Shown one piece after another: positions 5,272 to 48,736 of a stretch of DNA of 64,000 nucleotides (positions within the stretch are counted from its first letter, which is position 1; every line of letters begins with the position of its first letter). Under the pieces are notes generated by a model that made no database searches, was not told where the DNA came from, and saw nothing but the letters and a program-made list of their open reading frames with translations. This DNA is from Chloroflexota bacterium (GTDB lineage Bacteria > Chloroflexota > Dehalococcoidia > Lucifugimonadales > GCA-002723415): NCBI GenBank assembly GCA_002723415.1, contig PBOA01000031.1, forward strand, positions 23,991 through 87,990. Reading direction: 5' to 3'. Position numbers and translations under genes: made by a program.

Positions 5272-5751
5272 TTGCAGATCGATAATGATCGATTTCGAGA
5301 AGAAATCAATAAAGAACTTTCTTCTCAAACCCGTCCTACTATTACTGTATTATCTTCTTTATTAGCTATTCAAGATAAATTTGGATATATACCTGAATTG
5401 GCTATTGATGTTATTGCCCAGTATACTGAGCATACAATAAATGAAGTTTGGGGAGTGGCTTCCTTTTATCCAAACTTTAGGTTTACAAAACCAGGAGAAA
5501 ATATGCTTGAAATATGCTGGGGGCCTACATGCCATTTGGCTGGATCCTCTAAAATATTAAATGATATTCAAGAAGCGTTAGGTCTTGATGGTGAAGGTGA
5601 AACAATCAATAATAAATTTACTTTAAAATATAACACTTGTTTGGGGGCTTGTTCTCAAGCTCCGGTTATTAGTATTAATCATGATTTTATAGGTAATTCA
5701 ACTTCTGAAAGTGTTTTAGAAAAATTATCAAAAATAGACCCTAAATTATAA
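5272..5751 (+). CDS. nuoE: NuoE/HoxE-like [2Fe-2S] subunit
   Basis: GVASFYPNF, CWGPTC and CLGAC give the thioredoxin-like 2Fe-2S ligand set. Confidence 0.85.
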   Translation: MQIDNDRFREEINKELSSQTRPTITVLSSLLAIQDKFGYIPELAIDVIAQYTEHTINEVWGVASFYPNFRFTKPGENMLEICWGPTCHLAGSSKILNDIQEALGLDGEGETINNKFTLKYNTCLGACSQAPVISINHDFIGNSTSESVLEKLSKIDPKL

Positions 5752-5752
5752 A

Positions 5753-7537
5753 ATGTTGCATTATACAGATCTTAAAGAATTAGCAAATGATAAATGGTTA
5801 GAATTAAATTCGGGTAATAAGCCTTGGATTCGTGTAGGAACAGCTATATGTGGAAAAGCTGCTGGAGCTGATTATGTATTAGATAAGCTTAAAATAGTTT
5901 TAAGTGAATTAAACATCGACTATATCATTGATGAAGTCGGTTGTTTAGGGATATGTTTTGCAGAACCTTTAGTAGATATCACCCTGGAAAATGGGAGAAG
6001 AGTTTTTTATAAAAACGTGTCTGTAGATGACATAAACACCATTATTGATGACTCTATTGTTGAAAATAAATTTAATCACTCTAGTTTGTTAGGAATTCTT
6101 ACTAGTAATGTTGATAATAATGCTATTGGTGAGAATGATTTGCCAGACCTGAATGAATTGCCAGGCATTAAATACCAAAAAAAAATTGCCTTAAGTAATG
6201 CTGGGAATGTTTCTCCATTTGATTTATATCATTATGTTTCGCAGGGAGGTTATTTAGCTTTAAATAAAGCTGTAAATCATATGACACCTGATGAAGTAAT
6301 TAAAGAAGTATCTGATTCAGGCCTTAGAGGAAGAGGTGGCGCAGCTTTTCCAACGGGCTTTAAATGGAGCTTCTTAGTAAAATCAGATAATCCAAGTAAA
6401 TACGTATTATGTAACTGTGAAGAAGGTGATCCTGGTGCTTATAACGATAAAGGAATATTAGAAAGCGATCCTTTTAAACTTTTAGAAGGGTTAACTATAG
6501 CTGGATATGCTACAAGATCATCAAATGGAATTGTATTTATAAGACATGGACATGATGGTCCTATAGATCGAATGGAAAATGCAATAAAAAGAGCATATGA
6601 TGAAGGGTTACTAGGGAAAAATATTTTTGATTCGGGTTTTGATTTTGACGTGGAAATTTCTTTAACTGGTGAATCATATGTCGCAGGTGAAGAATCTGCT
6701 TTAATGGAGTCAATTGAAGGCAAAAGGTCCCAACCTAGATTTAGGCCTCCATTTCCAGCACAATTTGGAGTTTGGGGTAAGCCGAGTAATATTAATAATG
6801 TTAAAACATTGACATATGTTCCAGATATAATTTCTAATGGAAGTAATTGGTTTGCCAATATTGGAGTTCAAGGAAATAAAGAGAAAAAGATTCAAGGTAG
6901 TACGGGTACTGCTATTGTATGTTTATCAGGTAATATTAAATTTCCAGGATTATATGAAGTCCCTATGGGTCTTAGTTTAAGGGACGTTATTTATAAAATA
7001 GGTGGAGGAACTGCCTCTGGTAAAGAATTGAAAGTTTTACAAACTGGCGGGCCTCTAGGTGGAGTGTTAGATTCGAATAGTTTAGATATTCATTTGGATT
7101 TTGACGAGATGAAGAGTGCAGGTGCTATTTTGGGCTCAGGGGGAATTATTGTTGGAGATATAGAAACTTGTGTTGTAGATTTGACTCGAGTACTTGTTGC
7201 TTTTTGCCAATATGAATCTTGTGGAAAATGTTTTCCTTGTAGGTTAGGTATGGAGCAAATTTTAGAAATTACTGAACGTATGGTTAAATGTGAGAGCTCT
7301 GAATATGATCTTGAACTTATTAAAAATGTTGGTCAAAATATGGAAAAGGCTTCTTTATGTGGTCATGGTCAGCTTGGCTATGGGCCTATTCGCTCAGCAT
7401 TAAAGTATTTTGAATCAGATTTTAAGTCACATATCATTGATAAAAAATGTCCTACGGGTAGCTGTGTTCAACCTATGATATCTCCTAAAAATACAAGACC
7501 TTATGGAATCCTTCAAATTAATAAAGGAGGTGAGTAG
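5753..7537 (+). CDS. nuoF: NuoF/HoxF-like FMN/NAD(H)-binding subunit with N-terminal Trx-like Fe-S domain
   Basis: SGLRGRGGAAFPTGFKW, CNCEEGDPGA, YVAGEESAL, CGKCFPCR and SLCGHGQ; no C-terminal 2x[4Fe-4S] domain. Confidence 0.9.
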   Translation: MLHYTDLKELANDKWLELNSGNKPWIRVGTAICGKAAGADYVLDKLKIVLSELNIDYIIDEVGCLGICFAEPLVDITLENGRRVFYKNVSVDDINTIIDDSIVENKFNHSSLLGILTSNVDNNAIGENDLPDLNELPGIKYQKKIALSNAGNVSPFDLYHYVSQGGYLALNKAVNHMTPDEVIKEVSDSGLRGRGGAAFPTGFKWSFLVKSDNPSKYVLCNCEEGDPGAYNDKGILESDPFKLLEGLTIAGYATRSSNGIVFIRHGHDGPIDRMENAIKRAYDEGLLGKNIFDSGFDFDVEISLTGESYVAGEESALMESIEGKRSQPRFRPPFPAQFGVWGKPSNINNVKTLTYVPDIISNGSNWFANIGVQGNKEKKIQGSTGTAIVCLSGNIKFPGLYEVPMGLSLRDVIYKIGGGTASGKELKVLQTGGPLGGVLDSNSLDIHLDFDEMKSAGAILGSGGIIVGDIETCVVDLTRVLVAFCQYESCGKCFPCRLGMEQILEITERMVKCESSEYDLELIKNVGQNMEKASLCGHGQLGYGPIRSALKYFESDFKSHIIDKKCPTGSCVQPMISPKNTRPYGILQINKGGE

Positions 7538-10275
7538 TGGTAGATGAAATAACTTTTACTTTAGATGGAGAAGAAATTAAAGCAAAAAATGGTTCTAATA
7601 TACTTCAAGCAGCTATTGATTCTGAAAAATACATACCATATTTGTGTTATTATCCTGGAATGAAATCTTTTGGTGCTTGTAGGATGTGTGTCGTTGAAGT
7701 AGAGCAAATTGGACCTGATGGAAATTATAGGCCTATTCCTGGAACACCAGCAGCGTGTACTACACCAGTTAATGAAGGTATGAAAGTAACTACAAAAAAT
7801 AATAATATTAATTCTACACGTAAAGGGATAATGGATTTACTTTTGACTGAACATCCTCATGGTTGTTTAACTTGTCATAGAGTAGAATTATGTGGCCCTT
7901 CAGATGTTTGTCTTAGGCATGTTTCTGTTAATGACAGATGTGTGACATGTCCTAAAAATGAAAGATGTGAATTGAAAGATACTGTTAGATATTTAGAGAT
8001 GGATATGGATTCTCCATTATCATATAACAATCGTAACATCCCTTTGAAAACAGATGATCCATTTTGGGATATGGATATGAATTTATGTATTGCTTGTGTT
8101 AGATGTGTTAGAGTGTGTGATGAGATCAGAGGCGATAATGCTATTACTTTATTAGAAAGATCTGGTAAAACCTTAATTGGAACAGCAAAAGGTACGTCTT
8201 TAATTGAATCTGGTTGTGAGTTTTGCGGTGCATGCATAGATGTCTGTCCAACGGGAGCATTAGTCGAAAGAAAATACAAATGGGATAAAGCTGTAAAAAA
8301 GATTTCTACAGTTTGTACAATTTGCCCTGTAGGATGTAAATTAGACTTTGAAATTGATAAAAGAAATAGATTGATTCGATCAATTCCCGATTTAAACGGT
8401 TTTTCTAACCGTGGTCAAGGGTGTTTTAAAAGCAAGTTTGGATTAGAATTTTTAAACACACAAAATCGTATAAAAACTCCAATGATTAGAAATGATAAAT
8501 CTGCTAATTTAGAAAGGGTTTCATGGCTTGATATTATTGATCATATTGCTAAGAATTTAAATAATTATAAAGGAACTCAATTTGCAGCAATTGGGTCTGG
8601 AAACGCTAGTAATGAAGATAATTTTTTAATTCAAAAATTTGCAAGAGTAGTTATGCAATCAAACAATGTTGATATTTCTACAAATTTTAAACCTCAATTA
8701 TCTGATATAACTAGAGAATTGACAGGTAATATAAGACCAGAAAACACTATATGGGATATAGAAAAATCAGATGTAATTATGGTTGTTAGTTCTGATTTGC
8801 TTCCAGAATATAATGTAGTTGGTTTGCCTGTAAAGCGTGCAGTTATGAATGGTTCTAAATTGATTGTTATAGACCAAAGAGATACTGAAATTTCAAAACA
8901 TGCTTCTCATGTGGTTAAAATTAAACCAAATACTGAGGGAATTTTTATTTTTGGGATGATTAGAGTGATTTTAGATGAATCATTAGATAATCATGATTTT
9001 TTGTATGCAAATGTTTTAAATATTGCAGAATTTAGAAAATCTATTTGGTCATACGATGTTAAAAAAGTTTCTGAAATAACTGGAGCTTCTATTGATACAA
9101 TTAAAGAAACTGCTCGGACTTTTGCTAAGGCAGGATTTGGCTCGATAATATATGCCTTAGAAACTGTTGATGATAATTACTTAAATGAATGTGTGAAATC
9201 CATTTATGATTTGTCATTAATTACAGGTAATTATGGCAATCAAATTGGTGGTTTATACCCCTTAAGTCCTGGGGGAAATGAAAAGGGTTCTAAAGATGTT
9301 GGATGTAATCCTAATTATTTACCTGGATATCAGAGTTATTCAAATAAAAAAGATTTAGAACAAATTTGGAATTGTAATCTTTCAGATTTGGAAGGTAAAG
9401 GTCTTAAAAAACTTATTAAATCTATTAATGATGGTGAAATTAAGTGTTTATATTTTGTTGGAGATTTACCTAATTTGTCTAATATGGAAACCAAGGATTT
9501 TATTGATTCATTAAGTAAATTAGAGTTTTTAATAATAGAGGATTGTATTGATACAGAACTCAGTAAATTTGCTGATGTTATTTTGCCTTCAAGTAATTTT
9601 GCTGAAGGTTTTGGTTCTGTTACGAATTTAGAAGGTTTGGTCCAATTAATTTCTCCTGCATTAGGTTTTAAAAATGATCAAGAATATACCTGGAAAATAT
9701 TAAGTAAAATAGCACTTGCTATGGGTTATAATTCATTTAATTATCAAAATACTCAACAGATTTTTGATGAAATCGTTAAGATTATACCTGCTTATACAGG
9801 GCTCACATATGATTTAATTAAATCTGAAGATTGTATTATCAAAAATCATAACACATCTGAGGAAACAGTAAGCAAAAAATATAATTTATCTATTGTAGAT
9901 AAATATGAGCCAAAGATTTATGAAAATAATGATTTTCCTCTATTATTAAGCCTATCATATATTTTACATGATTCTGATGTTGATACTAAAGTAGTTAATA
10001 ATAATGGTCGTGAAATTATTCGAACGCCTTTAATACATATAAATAAAAATGATGCTTTAAAATATCAGATTTCTAATGGAGATACTATTGTTATATCAGC
10101 AGAAGGCTTAGAAATTACAGGTAAAGTGATTATAGATGGTAATCTTTCGGGTGTTATATCTACAAATTTGTTATTCGGTGAATCTATTAGTAATTTAGAA
10201 AAAGGGTCTGATCTGAGAGGTCTTATTAATTTAAATTCTCAAAAATTAATTTCTGCTAAAATAGAAAAACAATAA
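7537..10275 (+). CDS. NuoG/FdhA-like Fe-S protein with molybdopterin-oxidoreductase fold lacking the Mo ligand
   Basis: 2Fe-2S motif (LC..GACRMC..AC), His-ligated cluster with Cys-rich insert, two CxxCxxC motifs and CTICPVGC..GC. The FDH NNxDxCxRxC/UH segment reads SNNVDISTNF. Confidence 0.85.
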   Translation: MVDEITFTLDGEEIKAKNGSNILQAAIDSEKYIPYLCYYPGMKSFGACRMCVVEVEQIGPDGNYRPIPGTPAACTTPVNEGMKVTTKNNNINSTRKGIMDLLLTEHPHGCLTCHRVELCGPSDVCLRHVSVNDRCVTCPKNERCELKDTVRYLEMDMDSPLSYNNRNIPLKTDDPFWDMDMNLCIACVRCVRVCDEIRGDNAITLLERSGKTLIGTAKGTSLIESGCEFCGACIDVCPTGALVERKYKWDKAVKKISTVCTICPVGCKLDFEIDKRNRLIRSIPDLNGFSNRGQGCFKSKFGLEFLNTQNRIKTPMIRNDKSANLERVSWLDIIDHIAKNLNNYKGTQFAAIGSGNASNEDNFLIQKFARVVMQSNNVDISTNFKPQLSDITRELTGNIRPENTIWDIEKSDVIMVVSSDLLPEYNVVGLPVKRAVMNGSKLIVIDQRDTEISKHASHVVKIKPNTEGIFIFGMIRVILDESLDNHDFLYANVLNIAEFRKSIWSYDVKKVSEITGASIDTIKETARTFAKAGFGSIIYALETVDDNYLNECVKSIYDLSLITGNYGNQIGGLYPLSPGGNEKGSKDVGCNPNYLPGYQSYSNKKDLEQIWNCNLSDLEGKGLKKLIKSINDGEIKCLYFVGDLPNLSNMETKDFIDSLSKLEFLIIEDCIDTELSKFADVILPSSNFAEGFGSVTNLEGLVQLISPALGFKNDQEYTWKILSKIALAMGYNSFNYQNTQQIFDEIVKIIPAYTGLTYDLIKSEDCIIKNHNTSEETVSKKYNLSIVDKYEPKIYENNDFPLLLSLSYILHDSDVDTKVVNNNGREIIRTPLIHINKNDALKYQISNGDTIVISAEGLEITGKVIIDGNLSGVISTNLLFGESISNLEKGSDLRGLINLNSQKLISAKIEKQ

Positions 10276-17237: not shown

Positions 17238-17864
17238 ATGGAAAAAATTACAGTATTTTATGATTATTCTTGACCATTTGTATATAACGCAACAGTTTGG
17301 TTGCAATATGTTAAATATAGAAAAAAAGAACTTATTTTGGATTGGCGACATTTTCAATTAGAAAAGATTAAAAACCCAGATGAATCTAATATTAACTGGA
17401 ATGATCTAGATTTACAAAAATCTAGATCATTGCTAACTGCAATATCAGCAGAAGCAGCAAAATTACAAGGGCCTAGATTGTTTGACCTTTATCATTCAGC
17501 TATCCTTGATTCTAGACATAATAAACAACCTAGATTAGTTCTTAATAATCTTGATGGATTAATTGATATAGCAGTTGAAGTTGGGCTGAATAAAAATAAA
17601 TTTGTTAATGATATTAATAATCAAAATTTAGTTAATATTGTTGAAAAGGATCACAAAGAAGCTGTTGAAAGATATGGTGTTTTTGGTACTCCTACTTTAA
17701 TATTTGATAATAACCAAAGTGTATTTGTTAAAACATTTATTCCTGGAAATAAGAAAGATTATATTCTATTTTTTGATTATATATTAAAAGTTTTTAGAGA
17801 TATGCCATTTGTAGGAGAATTAAAAAGACCTCAACCACCTTGGCCTAAAGGTTTAAGAAAATAA
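17238..17864 (+). CDS. DsbA-like thioredoxin-fold selenoprotein (Sec12, TGA at 17271-17273), 208 aa
   Basis: ATG 17238 reads MEKITVFYDYS-TGA-PFVYNATVWLQ, in frame with track ORF 17301-17864. The TGA sits at the Cys of the FDxxCP motif; cis-Pro motif GVFGTPT; downstream hairpin. Confidence 0.85.
17285..17313 (+). promoter_or_regulatory. Candidate bacterial SECIS (DsbA-like gene)
   Basis: GCAAC(17289-93)/GTTGC(17300-04) stem with loop AGTTTG 20 nt after the UGA, G at loop position 2; lower TAAC/GTTA stem. Confidence 0.6.
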
Positions 17865-31442: not shown

Positions 31443-31472
31443 TTGACACTTTACTTTTGTACGTGTTACATT
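31443..31472 (+). promoter_or_regulatory. Sigma70-type promoter upstream of the Rdx selenoprotein
   Basis: TTGACA (31443-48), 18-nt spacer ending in TGn, then TACATT (31467-72). Confidence 0.55.
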
Positions 31473-31508
31473 CACCAAACATAAATAAATAAAATTTAGG
31501 GTAAAATT

Positions 31509-31769
31509 ATGTCATTTAAATCTAAAATAAATATTGAAATAAAATATTGTGTGCCTTGAGGCTACCATGCAGTTGCAGCCTGGATGGTTGTAGAATTTTA
31601 TAGTGTTGGAGCAGGTAATATTTCCATTACATTGACTCCTGGAGATTCTGGTGTATTAAAAGTCGTCTTAGATGATCAAGTCATTTATGACAAAAAAGAA
31701 GAAAATGGTGAAACTCCAACTTTGACTCGAATGAAAGAATTGAAAGCAATAGTTAAATCAAAATTATAA
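31509..31769 (+). CDS. Rdx (SelW/SelT/SelH) family selenoprotein, CxxU motif (TGA 31557-31559), 86 aa
   Basis: ATG 31509 reads MSFKSKINIEIKYCVP-TGA-GY, in frame with track ORF 31584-31769. IxYCxxUGY is the Rdx signature, and the C-terminal half fits the family. Confidence 0.92.
31574..31592 (+). promoter_or_regulatory. Candidate bacterial SECIS (Rdx gene)
   Basis: TGCAGCC/GGTTGTA 7-bp stem (two G-U pairs) with loop TGGAT 21 nt after the UGA, G at loop position 2. Confidence 0.55.
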
Positions 31770-46162: not shown

Positions 46163-46903
46163 TTAAAAACCTTCATAAACTCCAAATAAATATACAACAG
46201 TAAATATTACAATCCAAACAATATCAACAAAATGCCAGTATAAAGCTGCTAAATCTACGTCAAGATGCCGGTCGGCTGAGACTGCACCTCGTTTAAAAGA
46301 ATAAAAGAAAAGAGATAACAACCAAATAACTCCCAAAGTCACATGCGCTCCATGAAAACCAGTAAGTACAAAGAAAGTCGTACCAAACAAATTTGTTCTT
46401 GGAGTCATTCCAAATTCAATATCTGCCTCTTTTTTTCCTTCAGAGCATTGTTTTTTATAGTCAGATTTCTGTTGAGATGAAAATTTATTTTCTAGTTCAG
46501 TATATTTTGCATTGTTTTCTTCACAGCCTATTTTGACATGGTTTACTGTAAAATCTCTAAATTCAAATACTTGGAATCCAAGAAATGTCATTCCCATTAT
46601 TGCTGTAGATAACATCCAAACTCTAAATACTTTTAGGTTTCCTTTAGTAAGAGCTGCATAAGCTAAAACCATGCTCATACTACTCATTAATAATACAAAT
46701 GTACTTACAGATGTTACGGGTATTGAAAAAAGGTCAATTGGTTCAGGACCAGTAACACTTTTTCCTCTGTAAACTAAATATGTTGCTATTAATGATGCAA
46801 AGAACATACAATCAGAACCTAGAAAGGCCCACATCAATAACTTTCTGTGGTTTAATCCTGTAGTAGTATTTTCAACTGTTGAGTGATTATTTTGTTCAGA
46901 CAA
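46163..46903 (-). CDS. ctaE: Cytochrome c oxidase subunit III
   Basis: FLGSDCMFF, LTGFHGAHV and YWHFVDIVW. Confidence 0.95.
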   Translation of the reverse strand: MSEQNNHSTVENTTTGLNHRKLLMWAFLGSDCMFFASLIATYLVYRGKSVTGPEPIDLFSIPVTSVSTFVLLMSSMSMVLAYAALTKGNLKVFRVWMLSTAIMGMTFLGFQVFEFRDFTVNHVKIGCEENNAKYTELENKFSSQQKSDYKKQCSEGKKEADIEFGMTPRTNLFGTTFFVLTGFHGAHVTLGVIWLLSLFFYSFKRGAVSADRHLDVDLAALYWHFVDIVWIVIFTVVYLFGVYEGF

Positions 46904-46927
46904 TATTTTCCTACCTTGTTTTAAATA

Positions 46928-48736
46928 TCAATGAGGGTCGTTAACTGGTTCAAAAGACCAAGCATAAACTCCAATCATTGTAATTGCAGCACCAATAATT
47001 GCTACTGGTATGCTTAAAATTATTCCGAAACCACCAATTAGTAATCCAACTGATGCAATAAATGGCCAATATGATGGTTGTGGTAAATGTACATCTTTTG
47101 ATACTGGTTGCTCTTGAGCTTTTTTCAGCATCTTTTTTTCCCACCAATCATCCCTGTATTCTATTGTTGGAATAACAGCAAAATTGTATTCAGGAGGAGG
47201 TGAGGTAATTGACCATTCAAGAGTTCTAGCATCCCAAGGGTCACCAGATGCTTTAGCACCTTTAATCCAACTTGAAACAATATTGTAAATGAATATAACC
47301 ATTGAAGCTGCGAGTAATAATACTCCTATAGTTGAAATTAGATTCCAAAAATCCCAACCATATTCACTTCCATAAGTATATATTCTGCGAGGCATTCCGT
47401 TTAAGCCAGTAAAATGCATAGGGAAAAAAGTAATGTTCATAGAAATGAAAAAAGCGTAAAATCCTAATTTACCAAGTTTTTCATCATACATTCTTCCAGT
47501 AAATTTAGGGAACCAGTAATAAATTCCACCTAATATTGCAATTAAGCTGCCACCAAAAAGTACATAATGAATATGGGCAACAATAAAATAAGTATCTTGT
47601 TGTTGAGCATCAGATGCAGCTTGAGAGTGCATTACTCCACTTATTCCGCCAATTGTAAATGTTAATATGAAGCCTATAGCATATAGCATAGGGGTATTAA
47701 GTGTTAATGAGCCTCTCCACATGGTTCCGAGCCAATTGAAAATTTTTACACCAGTAGGAATTGCTATAGCCATAGTTGTAAGAGCAAAAACTGAATTAGC
47801 TACAGGACCTAGGCCTACAGTAAACATATGGTGACTCCATACCATCCATCCCATAAAACCTATTATAATACCTGAAAGTATAACAACAGGGTAGCCAAAT
47901 AAAGGTTTTTTAGAGAAAGTAGGCAATATTTCAGATACTATTCCCATTGCAGGTAAAATTAAAATATAAACTTCTGGGTGTCCAAAAACCCAAAACAGGT
48001 GTTGCCATAGTACGGGATTTCCTCCTGCAGAAGTTATGAAAAAATTGGTTCCATAAAATCTATCAAATTGTAATTCTATCAAAGCTACAGTTATTACAGG
48101 AAAAGCTAGTACTAATAGAATTGCAGTTATAAATGACATCCATGTGAATACAGGTAATCTTGAGAAGGTCATACCTGGAGCTCGCATATTTATAATTGTT
48201 ACTATGAAATTAAAAGCAGCCGCTAGAGAAGCTATTCCTAAAACTTGTAAACTAATTATCCAAAAATCAATTCCGTGGCCTACATTATATGCTTTACCCG
48301 TAATTGGAGCATATCCAAACCATCCCGCGTTAGGTGCTCCTCCTAAAAACCAACTAGCATTTAATATTATTGCACCTGCTAAAAAAGTCCAATAACTAAA
48401 AGCATTTAATCTTGGAAATGCAACATCTCTTGCTCCAATTTGTAGAGGTATCAGATAGTTAAAAAATGCTGCTCCCATAGGCATTATTGCTAAAAATATC
48501 ATTGTTGTCCCATGCATTGTAAATAATTGGTTGTAAAGCTCTGGGTCAATTATTTTTAAGTTTGATGAAGCCAATTGAGCACGCATAAGCATAGCTTCTA
48601 TACCACCAATTATAAATAGAATAAATGCTGAAACCCCATATAATATACCTATTTTTTTGTGATCAATAGTTGTGATCCAATTCCAAATTCCAGTTGGGTG
48701 TATAGGTCTAGATATTTGTAATGGGAAAGTTGTCAT
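46928..48736 (-). CDS. ctaD: Cytochrome c oxidase subunit I (A1-type heme-copper oxidase)
   Basis: TMHGTTMIF, ARDVAFPRLN, GHPEVY, WSHHM and AHIHYV. Confidence 0.99.
   Translation of the reverse strand: MTTFPLQISRPIHPTGIWNWITTIDHKKIGILYGVSAFILFIIGGIEAMLMRAQLASSNLKIIDPELYNQLFTMHGTTMIFLAIMPMGAAFFNYLIPLQIGARDVAFPRLNAFSYWTFLAGAIILNASWFLGGAPNAGWFGYAPITGKAYNVGHGIDFWIISLQVLGIASLAAAFNFIVTIINMRAPGMTFSRLPVFTWMSFITAILLVLAFPVITVALIELQFDRFYGTNFFITSAGGNPVLWQHLFWVFGHPEVYILILPAMGIVSEILPTFSKKPLFGYPVVILSGIIIGFMGWMVWSHHMFTVGLGPVANSVFALTTMAIAIPTGVKIFNWLGTMWRGSLTLNTPMLYAIGFILTFTIGGISGVMHSQAASDAQQQDTYFIVAHIHYVLFGGSLIAILGGIYYWFPKFTGRMYDEKLGKLGFYAFFISMNITFFPMHFTGLNGMPRRIYTYGSEYGWDFWNLISTIGVLLLAASMVIFIYNIVSSWIKGAKASGDPWDARTLEWSITSPPPEYNFAVIPTIEYRDDWWEKKMLKKAQEQPVSKDVHLPQPSYWPFIASVGLLIGGFGIILSIPVAIIGAAITMIGVYAWSFEPVNDPH

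Follow-up and report, generated by a model that had tools for sequence, protein, structure and literature searches.

A real but ordinary gene for a probable SelW/Rdx-family selenoprotein in an AT-rich marine Dehalococcoidia bacterium

When a short bacterial reading frame is cut by a single TGA, is the codon a stop, a lesion, a reassigned sense codon or a site of selenocysteine (Sec) insertion? The question is raised by a locus in a 64,000-nucleotide stretch of DNA from a Chloroflexota bacterium (assembly GCA_002723415.1, contig PBOA01000031.1, positions 23,991 to 87,990 of the forward strand), referred to here at its full length as the window. A preliminary description of the window had proposed that the frame opened by ATG31509 encodes a hidden selenoprotein of the Rdx family, truncated by the open reading frame (ORF) caller. 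The frame is indeed present in the sequence and continues to 31769 with one in-frame TGA: the translation reads MSFKSKINIEIKYCVP up to the TGA at 31557-31559, which is codon 17, resumes as GYHAVAAWMVVEF after it and ends in KSKL. The locus is that of a small SelW/Rdx-family selenoprotein in an AT-rich marine member of the Dehalococcoidia, real but ordinary, and we consider it very probable that 31509-31769 is a genuine gene of this kind, dependent on a Sec insertion sequence (SECIS). The truncation is likewise as described, the ORF caller having reported a 61-residue ORF that begins at ATG31584. ORF callers shorten the Rdx gene because they take UGA for a stop, and P0003 and the homologues P0004-P0011 in the databases are shortened forms as well.

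To place the product, profile searches and alignments were run with Cys written at the UGA position. The read-through product matched PF10262 (Rdx) over profile positions 1-73 of 74 (E-value = 1.1e-14; 54.8 bits against a cut-off of 22.6) and passed the threshold of TIGR02174 "CXXU_selWTH" (38.5 bits against 34.2). It fell below that of the NF041051 SelTWH_Campy equivalog (40.8 bits against 88) and is not a member of the Campylobacter-type subfamily. The 61-residue ORF alone also scored above the PF10262 cut-off (28.5 bits), covering profile positions 32-73 only. When a profile of the orthologues was compared with the PDB, it matched the bacterial Rdx proteins 2OKA, 3DEX, 2OJL, 2FA8, 2OBK and 2P0G, the CVPU motif being aligned with CTQC of the first three. 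The AlphaFold model was built on the database relative P0002, which carries Trp at the Sec site; it has a pLDDT of 72.8 and consists of a strand (residues 8-13), the CxxU loop, a helix (residues 19-32), three strands and a final helix. All of the top 22 Foldseek matches of this model in the PDB are Rdx structures, and the TM-score with mouse SelW is 0.71. The product is thus predicted to adopt the thioredoxin-like fold of SelW, and the fold together with the CxxU motif suggests a thioredoxin-like redox function; we take it to be a thiol/selenol oxidoreductase. The assignment to the Rdx/SelW family with a CxxU motif, initially made from the letters alone, is borne out by Pfam, TIGRFAM, the PDB alignment and AlphaFold/Foldseek.

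The comparison of relatives shows that the TGA is no peculiarity of one record. The 61-residue fragment is encoded on at least 24 contigs, and all ten independent assemblies that we fetched (Tara Oceans, JGI, NCBI and Logan) contain the identical 261 nt, TGA included, without a mismatch. Two scans of one-genome-per-species contigs yielded 33 orthologues, all from metagenome-assembled genomes (MAGs) of Chloroflexota/Dehalococcoidia, which range from 29 to 68% in GC content and share 40-88% amino-acid identity. At the YCV[PS]-U position, 32 of them have TGA and one (L037) has TGC, so that the codon, whose presence in relatives the preliminary description had singled out for checking, is conserved and not unique to this assembly. 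Over the 16 codons that precede the UGA, the window differs from its closest relative (SP267) by six synonymous changes and one non-synonymous change; this low level of non-synonymous change indicates that the stretch is translated in this frame. The sequence comparison shows purifying selection on either side of the UGA.

Some database entries show other residues at the site. P0002 has Trp in the protein and TGA in the DNA, because its gene call used code 4. In P0012, P0013 and P0014, which like P0002 are ENA calls and which together with it comprise relatives of both selenoprotein genes of the window (the second gene is described below), the Sec UGA was also turned into Trp, apparently with the same code. 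P0001 has Arg, and both its contigs truly carry CGA, an ordinary Arg codon in the window with 47 uses. CGA replaces the Sec codon in a sister population known from two independent assemblies (L010 2001-2261 and L011 256-516), where the gene is otherwise intact and retains a perfect 8-bp hairpin; the change is from Sec to Arg, not from Sec to Cys. A single MAG from Lake Baikal (L051, SHYA01000006.1) combines the Sec TGA with a TAG in the last helix (GAG to TAG), so that either the allele is truncated or the assembly is in error here.

If UGA is read as Sec in bacteria, a stem-loop is expected just 3' of it. The preliminary description had reported a 7-bp hairpin with a G-containing loop 21 nt after the UGA and had ascribed a SECIS role to it. 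The hairpin was recovered with 7 bp in the centroid fold and has 8 bp when the terminal U-G pair is counted; its loop, UGGAU, corresponds to a Trp-Met codon pair. The bSECISearch model reportedly allows a UGA-to-loop spacing of 16-37 nt, and the spacing of 21 nt falls inside this range. The same local hairpin is predicted in every TGA gene. Across 29 distinct aligned sequences, 85% of the alignment cells are in pairs and the two loop-closing pairs are invariant C-G. Columns 27 and 39 are never unpaired in these sequences, forming G-C in 23, A-U in three, U-A in two and C-G in one. One covarying position is the synonymous third base of an Ala codon and the other that of an Ala/Val codon, and with the pair at such positions, protein coding cannot explain the covariation. 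The covariation score was reached in none of 500 shuffles, and slid registers score far lower. Moreover, the hairpin follows the identity of the codon. All 34 TGA genes have it, with 6.8 of 8 stem pairs formed on average and a mean energy of -12.1 kcal/mol across 26 nt. None of the 13 Cys homologues, L037 among them, has retained it: they form 1-4 of 8 pairs, and their energies stay near -4.7 kcal/mol even where the GC content is 70%. In the CGA variant, 8 of 8 pairs are intact. Retention with UGA and loss with UGC is the behaviour expected of a bacterial SECIS. Covariation and the loss with TGC thus support the SECIS role, and by these comparative measures the hairpin behaves like such an element.

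Several observations on the same region may be added. The sole TGC orthologue (L037, JAQBWG010000142.1) pairs at 4 of 8 stem positions, and the Trp-Met codons of the loop have become Trp-Leu. A paralogous Rdx subfamily with the motif CVPC (L052-L062; about 32% identity), found in Dehalococcoidia of 70% GC, has no hairpin, and one Microgenomates protein likewise has Cys at the Sec position. In a consensus scan, the hairpin followed by AAUUUUAU (31573-31603) was the only terminator-like site in the region; the T-run 3' of the hairpin arises from AT-rich Glu-Phe-Tyr codons, and GC-rich relatives do not have it.

Upstream of the gene, the AGGG ribosome-binding site of the preliminary description is present (31498-31501), and relatives L002-L009 have GGAG-like motifs at the same distance 5' of the N-terminal start codon. 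The upstream promoter was overrated in that description: a plausible site is there, but promoter-like sites in the region number 4 against 3.9 expected from shuffles, which taken alone is chance level. It is the comparative evidence that lifts the finding above chance, as both the promoter and the fold energy on their own remain at chance level.

Screening of the window for TGA-interrupted frames returned only two that looked real, the Rdx gene and a DsbA-like gene. The frame of the latter reads MEKITVFYDYS from ATG17238, then TGA (17271) and PFVYNA, and matches PF01323 from profile position 2 with E-value = 1.1e-15. Three contigs with GC contents of 28%, 50% and 59% have the DsbA-like TGA at the same place along with compensatory changes in the stem, and about 100 database homologues are N-terminally truncated, beginning just past the UGA point. 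Homologues with Cys also exist (P0016 and P0078). A scan of close-relative contigs for the DsbA-like gene gave no match, the 8-mer patterns being too specific. The gene lies upstream of rnc both here and in relatives, and ORF callers start it at 17301. A further read-through candidate, ctaD (46163-48736, reverse strand), in which the TGA is followed in frame by the next oxidase-subunit ORF, was rejected as two adjacent genes.

The preliminary description had also supposed that Sec is used in this lineage. To find SelA, we started from an alignment of the E. coli and Aquifex proteins, went on with three Chloroflexota seeds and rescanned with a lineage-specific C-terminal fragment, which gave at least 564 confirmed stretches. 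The best 80 of these are all from Dehalococcoidia/Chloroflexota/SAR202, and all 80 encode full-length SelA with 42-49% identity to that of E. coli. SelA (L200) and a TGA-containing Rdx orthologue (L028) occur together in the MAG CAZENU01. A SelA scan of 1.84 billion representative proteins placed an AT-rich SelA, P0264, at rank 13. Its contig, L238, is marine (Tara Oceans ERR594298; 16.4 kb, 33% GC) and has the gene order orf961-NUDIX-MoxR-like ATPase-CoaE-selA, which is shared, at 52-76% identity, by 43-53 of the 80 Dehalococcoidia loci but by practically none of 80 controls of other lineages. The tetranucleotide composition of L238 correlates with that of the window at r = 0.88, compared with 0.89-0.95 for the window's own 16-kb pieces and at most 0.79 for AT-rich controls. 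Thus, AT-rich marine Dehalococcoidia encode a predicted SelA. A second AT-rich SelA, P0380 (contigs L239-L242), was dismissed as a relative of the window, having no synteny with Dehalococcoidia selA loci and r = 0.75. In the literature, MAGs of Dehalococcoidia rank among the ten bacteria richest in selenoproteins (PMC13326102), and Chloroflexi are reported to have a tRNA-Sec of 8/4 structure (PMC5389517). Sec use in the lineage is therefore backed by the second TGA gene of the window and by SelA in Dehalococcoidia, including the AT-rich marine contig.

A number of results weigh against reading this UGA as Sec. Searches for the Sec machinery (tblastn with E. coli SelA, SelB and SelD; ARAGORN; Rfam) detected no selA, selB, selD or tRNA-Sec in the 64-kb window or in the adjoining sequence (about 13 kb past its ends), nor any Sec machinery at loci of the Rdx and DsbA-like genes totalling 228 kb. 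Further, none of the Dehalococcoidia loci fetched yielded selB, selD or tRNA-Sec, and at 80 selA loci of the class the sequence up to 10 kb from selA likewise contains none of the three. The machinery search suggested at the outset therefore succeeded for selA, in the class and in one MAG with a TGA-containing Rdx gene, and came back empty for selB, selD and tRNA-Sec in the window, its flanks and the fetched loci. L238 is tied to the organism of the window by composition and synteny only, not by assembly. As to the hairpin, its region is no more stable than shuffled sequence (fold energy z = -0.58), and 23 of 29 stems contain a C.A mismatch, which is there because a Thr codon forces it.

Four other explanations of the TGA have to be considered. 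Gene callers do read it as a stop, and the CGA of one sister population demonstrates that the codon can mutate, as one would expect if the TGA were a nonsense allele, the lesion of a pseudogene or a mistake of sequencing or assembly, confined to one record. However, the sequence is identical in ten independent assemblies, for which a shared contaminated reference is implausible given that they come from Tara, JGI, NCBI and Logan; TGA is kept in 32 of 33 orthologues throughout their range of identity (40-88%) and GC content (29-68%); and selection is purifying on both flanks of the codon. We therefore assign a lesion or error a negligible probability. The same holds for reassignment of TGA to a sense codon, Trp in code 4 or Gly in code 25, with a residue other than Sec at the site. 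The genome is very AT-rich, like code-4 genomes, and the ENA calls for relatives (P0002, P0012-P0014) give Trp, but TGA terminates 7 of the 54 long ORFs in the window, that of ctaD included, and several of these abut the next gene. The preliminary description was right that TGA is a normal stop elsewhere in the window. In addition, relatives with a GC content of 60-68% retain this TGA, homologues and solved structures have Cys at this position and not Trp or Gly, and reassignment would deprive the codon-covarying hairpin of a role. With TGA in use as a stop and Cys in the homologues, neither code 4 nor code 25 fits, and the chance of such a reassignment is vanishingly small.

Slightly more room is left for a true stop, with the 61-residue ORF from ATG31584 and/or a 16-residue leader as the products and the hairpin as a regulatory element or terminator. 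This would be compatible with the Rdx score of the short ORF (28.5 bits, above the cut-off) and with the terminator-like appearance of the hairpin and its T-rich run. The short product, however, would be devoid of strand 1 and CxxU, the features that define the family, and ATG31584 sits in the hairpin loop with no ribosome-binding site. The leader, for its part, shows protein-level conservation in the same frame, and the hairpin persists without the T-run in GC-rich relatives and disappears when the codon is TGC, all of which makes a true stop very improbable. Comparably improbable is read-through without Sec, in which the machinery would have been lost and a near-cognate tRNA (Trp, Cys or Arg) would decode a leaky UGA with the aid of the hairpin. 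The window's own contigs yielded no Sec machinery, and the sister population with CGA (Arg) kept the hairpin, as might happen while the Sec trait is being lost. Against this, UGA and hairpin both persist in each of two different selenoprotein genes of the window, selA is intact on a marine, AT-rich contig of Dehalococcoidia whose signature resembles that of the window, and the close relatives, SP267 and a Tara scaffold, keep TGA.

Under the preferred reading, that of a SECIS-dependent selenoprotein gene, translation would start at ATG31509 and the hairpin at 31573-31593 would recruit a SelB-type elongation factor with Sec-tRNA(Sec) at UGA31557. With the hairpin loop 21 nt after it, the codon would be read as Sec rather than as a stop, and translation would proceed to TAA31767. 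Insertion of Sec, binding of SelB to the hairpin and a redox function of the product are what we infer from the sequence comparisons.

The surroundings of the gene offer the only hint of a functional partner. The Rdx gene is flanked by eno-gap-pdxST on the other strand and, on the other side, by a CoA-transferase gene and then a gene for a PMT_2 glycosyltransferase-like membrane protein. No terminator is evident within the 41-nt gap between the Rdx and CoA-transferase genes, and the two are probably co-transcribed. The pair occurs at 13 loci (L001, L003, L006, L007, L022, L024, L025, L031, L034, L035, L038, L042 and L046) in ten genomes from several divergent Dehalococcoidia clades of 29-65% GC, the CoA-transferase orthologues at these loci being 42-89% identical over about 810 residues. 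It is conceivable, though unlikely, that the Rdx selenoprotein serves as a dedicated redox partner of the downstream CoA-transferase. If true, this would provide the first concrete biochemical context for a bacterial Rdx protein. The CGA sister population, for its part, might represent a way of losing Sec without passing through Cys. The features of the locus and of the second selenoprotein gene are collected in Table 1.

Table 1. Positions of the features described, numbered from the first nucleotide of the window
Feature	Position	Strand	Remarks
Full coding sequence, SelW-like (Rdx family) predicted selenoprotein	31509..31769	+	86 codons; Sec is codon 17; TAA stop at 31767-31769
Redox motif Cys14-Val-Pro-Sec17 (TGT GTG CCT TGA)	31548..31559	+	Aligned with CTQC of solved bacterial Rdx proteins
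In-frame UGA as putative Sec codon	31557..31559	+	Conserved in orthologues and identical across assemblies
SECIS-type hairpin, UUGCAGCC-UGGAU-GGUUGUAG	31573..31593	+	Loop at 31581-31585; starts 21 nt after the UGA
Truncated 61-residue ORF	31584..31769	+	ORF-caller call; start ATG within the SECIS loop; artefact of UGA taken as stop
Shine-Dalgarno-like AGGG	31498..31501	+	7 nt 5' of ATG31509
Promoter-like TTGACA-18-TACATT with a TG extension before the -10	31443..31472	+	10 of 12 positions match; plausible, no statistical support
Twin-domain family III CoA-transferase, 811 residues	31811..34246	+	PF02515 in two stretches; starts 41 nt past the Rdx stop
DsbA-like predicted selenoprotein gene, motif Sec12-Pro-Phe-Val (UxxV)	17238..17864	+	PF01323; UGA at 17271-17273
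Hairpin of the DsbA-like gene, GCAAC-AGUUUG-GUUGC	17289..17304	+	Starts 20 nt after its UGA

Two further observations concern more distant genes. About 7 kb past the right end of the window (L074 3057-3542), a 161-residue protein with eRF1-like/baeRF-family domains (PF18854, PF03464 and PF18859) adjoins a 1-Cys peroxiredoxin that has Cys, not Sec, at its active site. Within the window, at 5272-10275 of the forward strand, NuoE-like and NuoF-like genes and a molybdopterin/4Fe-4S set resemble an NAD-linked formate dehydrogenase; the 912-residue formate-dehydrogenase-like catalytic subunit is a single ORF and has no in-frame TGA.

All testable features of the SelW-like family are found in the gene, which is a further member of a known family and nothing new in kind. 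SelW-like proteins already figured among the known families in 2007 (PMC1976440), and it is recognised that standard pipelines mis-annotate such genes (PMC13326102). Since neither the family nor its mis-annotation is news, our results leave the knowledge of selenoproteins unchanged. What they document is that public protein sets carry only wrong forms of this protein, either a fragment of 61-68 residues without the active site or a full-length form with Trp (code 4), and as a result the selenium use of marine Dehalococcoidia (SAR202-type) is understated in annotations and family counts. Even in a class member of 29% GC, at least two predicted selenoprotein genes have been kept, and their SECIS elements are intact. 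The 34 Sec and 13 Cys genes compared here provide, besides, a clean case of a bacterial SECIS under joint constraint from coding and RNA structure.

Among known systems, the closest are the SelW-like proteins of the Sargasso Sea and Global Ocean Sampling (GOS) data described by Zhang and Gladyshev (PMC2398784, PMC1976440), which belong to the same Pfam family, have Sec at the same place in CxxU and a SECIS 3' of the UGA, and are marine. With 427 Sec sequences from 40 samples and 56 Cys homologues, SelW-like CxxU proteins are the most abundant prokaryotic selenoprotein family in GOS, and they generally top the list in marine samples (PMC2398784). The novelty of the find was accordingly overrated in the preliminary description. 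The excess of Sec over Cys in GOS (427 vs 56) is matched by the orthologues of the window (32 vs 1), and there is no essential difference between the two sets, except that the gene is assigned here to a named lineage, the AT-rich marine Dehalococcoidia and their GC-rich relatives, that its motif reads C-V-P-U and that covariation documents its SECIS. The DsbA-like gene has a counterpart in the 'DsbA 3' UxxV selenoproteins of GOS (PMC2398784, Table 2), which share with it PF01323, a single Sec, the motif U-P-F-V and Cys in homologues; five sequences of that group were known, compared with about 100 truncated homologues and three checked TGA loci here.

Structurally characterised relatives and other SECIS elements complete the comparison. 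The solved bacterial Rdx proteins (2FA8, 2OBK, 2P0G, 2OKA, 2OJL and 3DEX) have the same fold (TM-scores of 0.64-0.71), an aligned motif and a similar length, but they differ in having Cys for Sec and CTQC instead of CVPU, share 26-31% identity with the product, and are encoded by genes without UGA or SECIS. Mouse SelW (2NPB) shares the CxxU strand-loop-helix element and the thioredoxin-like fold (TM-score of 0.71) at 18% identity. The eukaryotic SECIS resides in the 3' untranslated region and uses SBP2 and eEFSec; mammalian SelW follows this arrangement, whereas the hairpin described here lies within the coding sequence. It resembles the SECIS of E. coli fdhF, likewise a stem-loop just 3' of the UGA with a G in the apical loop, although the two are unrelated in sequence, the element of the window and its relatives having an 8-bp stem, usually with a C.A mismatch, and a 5-nt UGGAU loop set by the Trp-Met codons.

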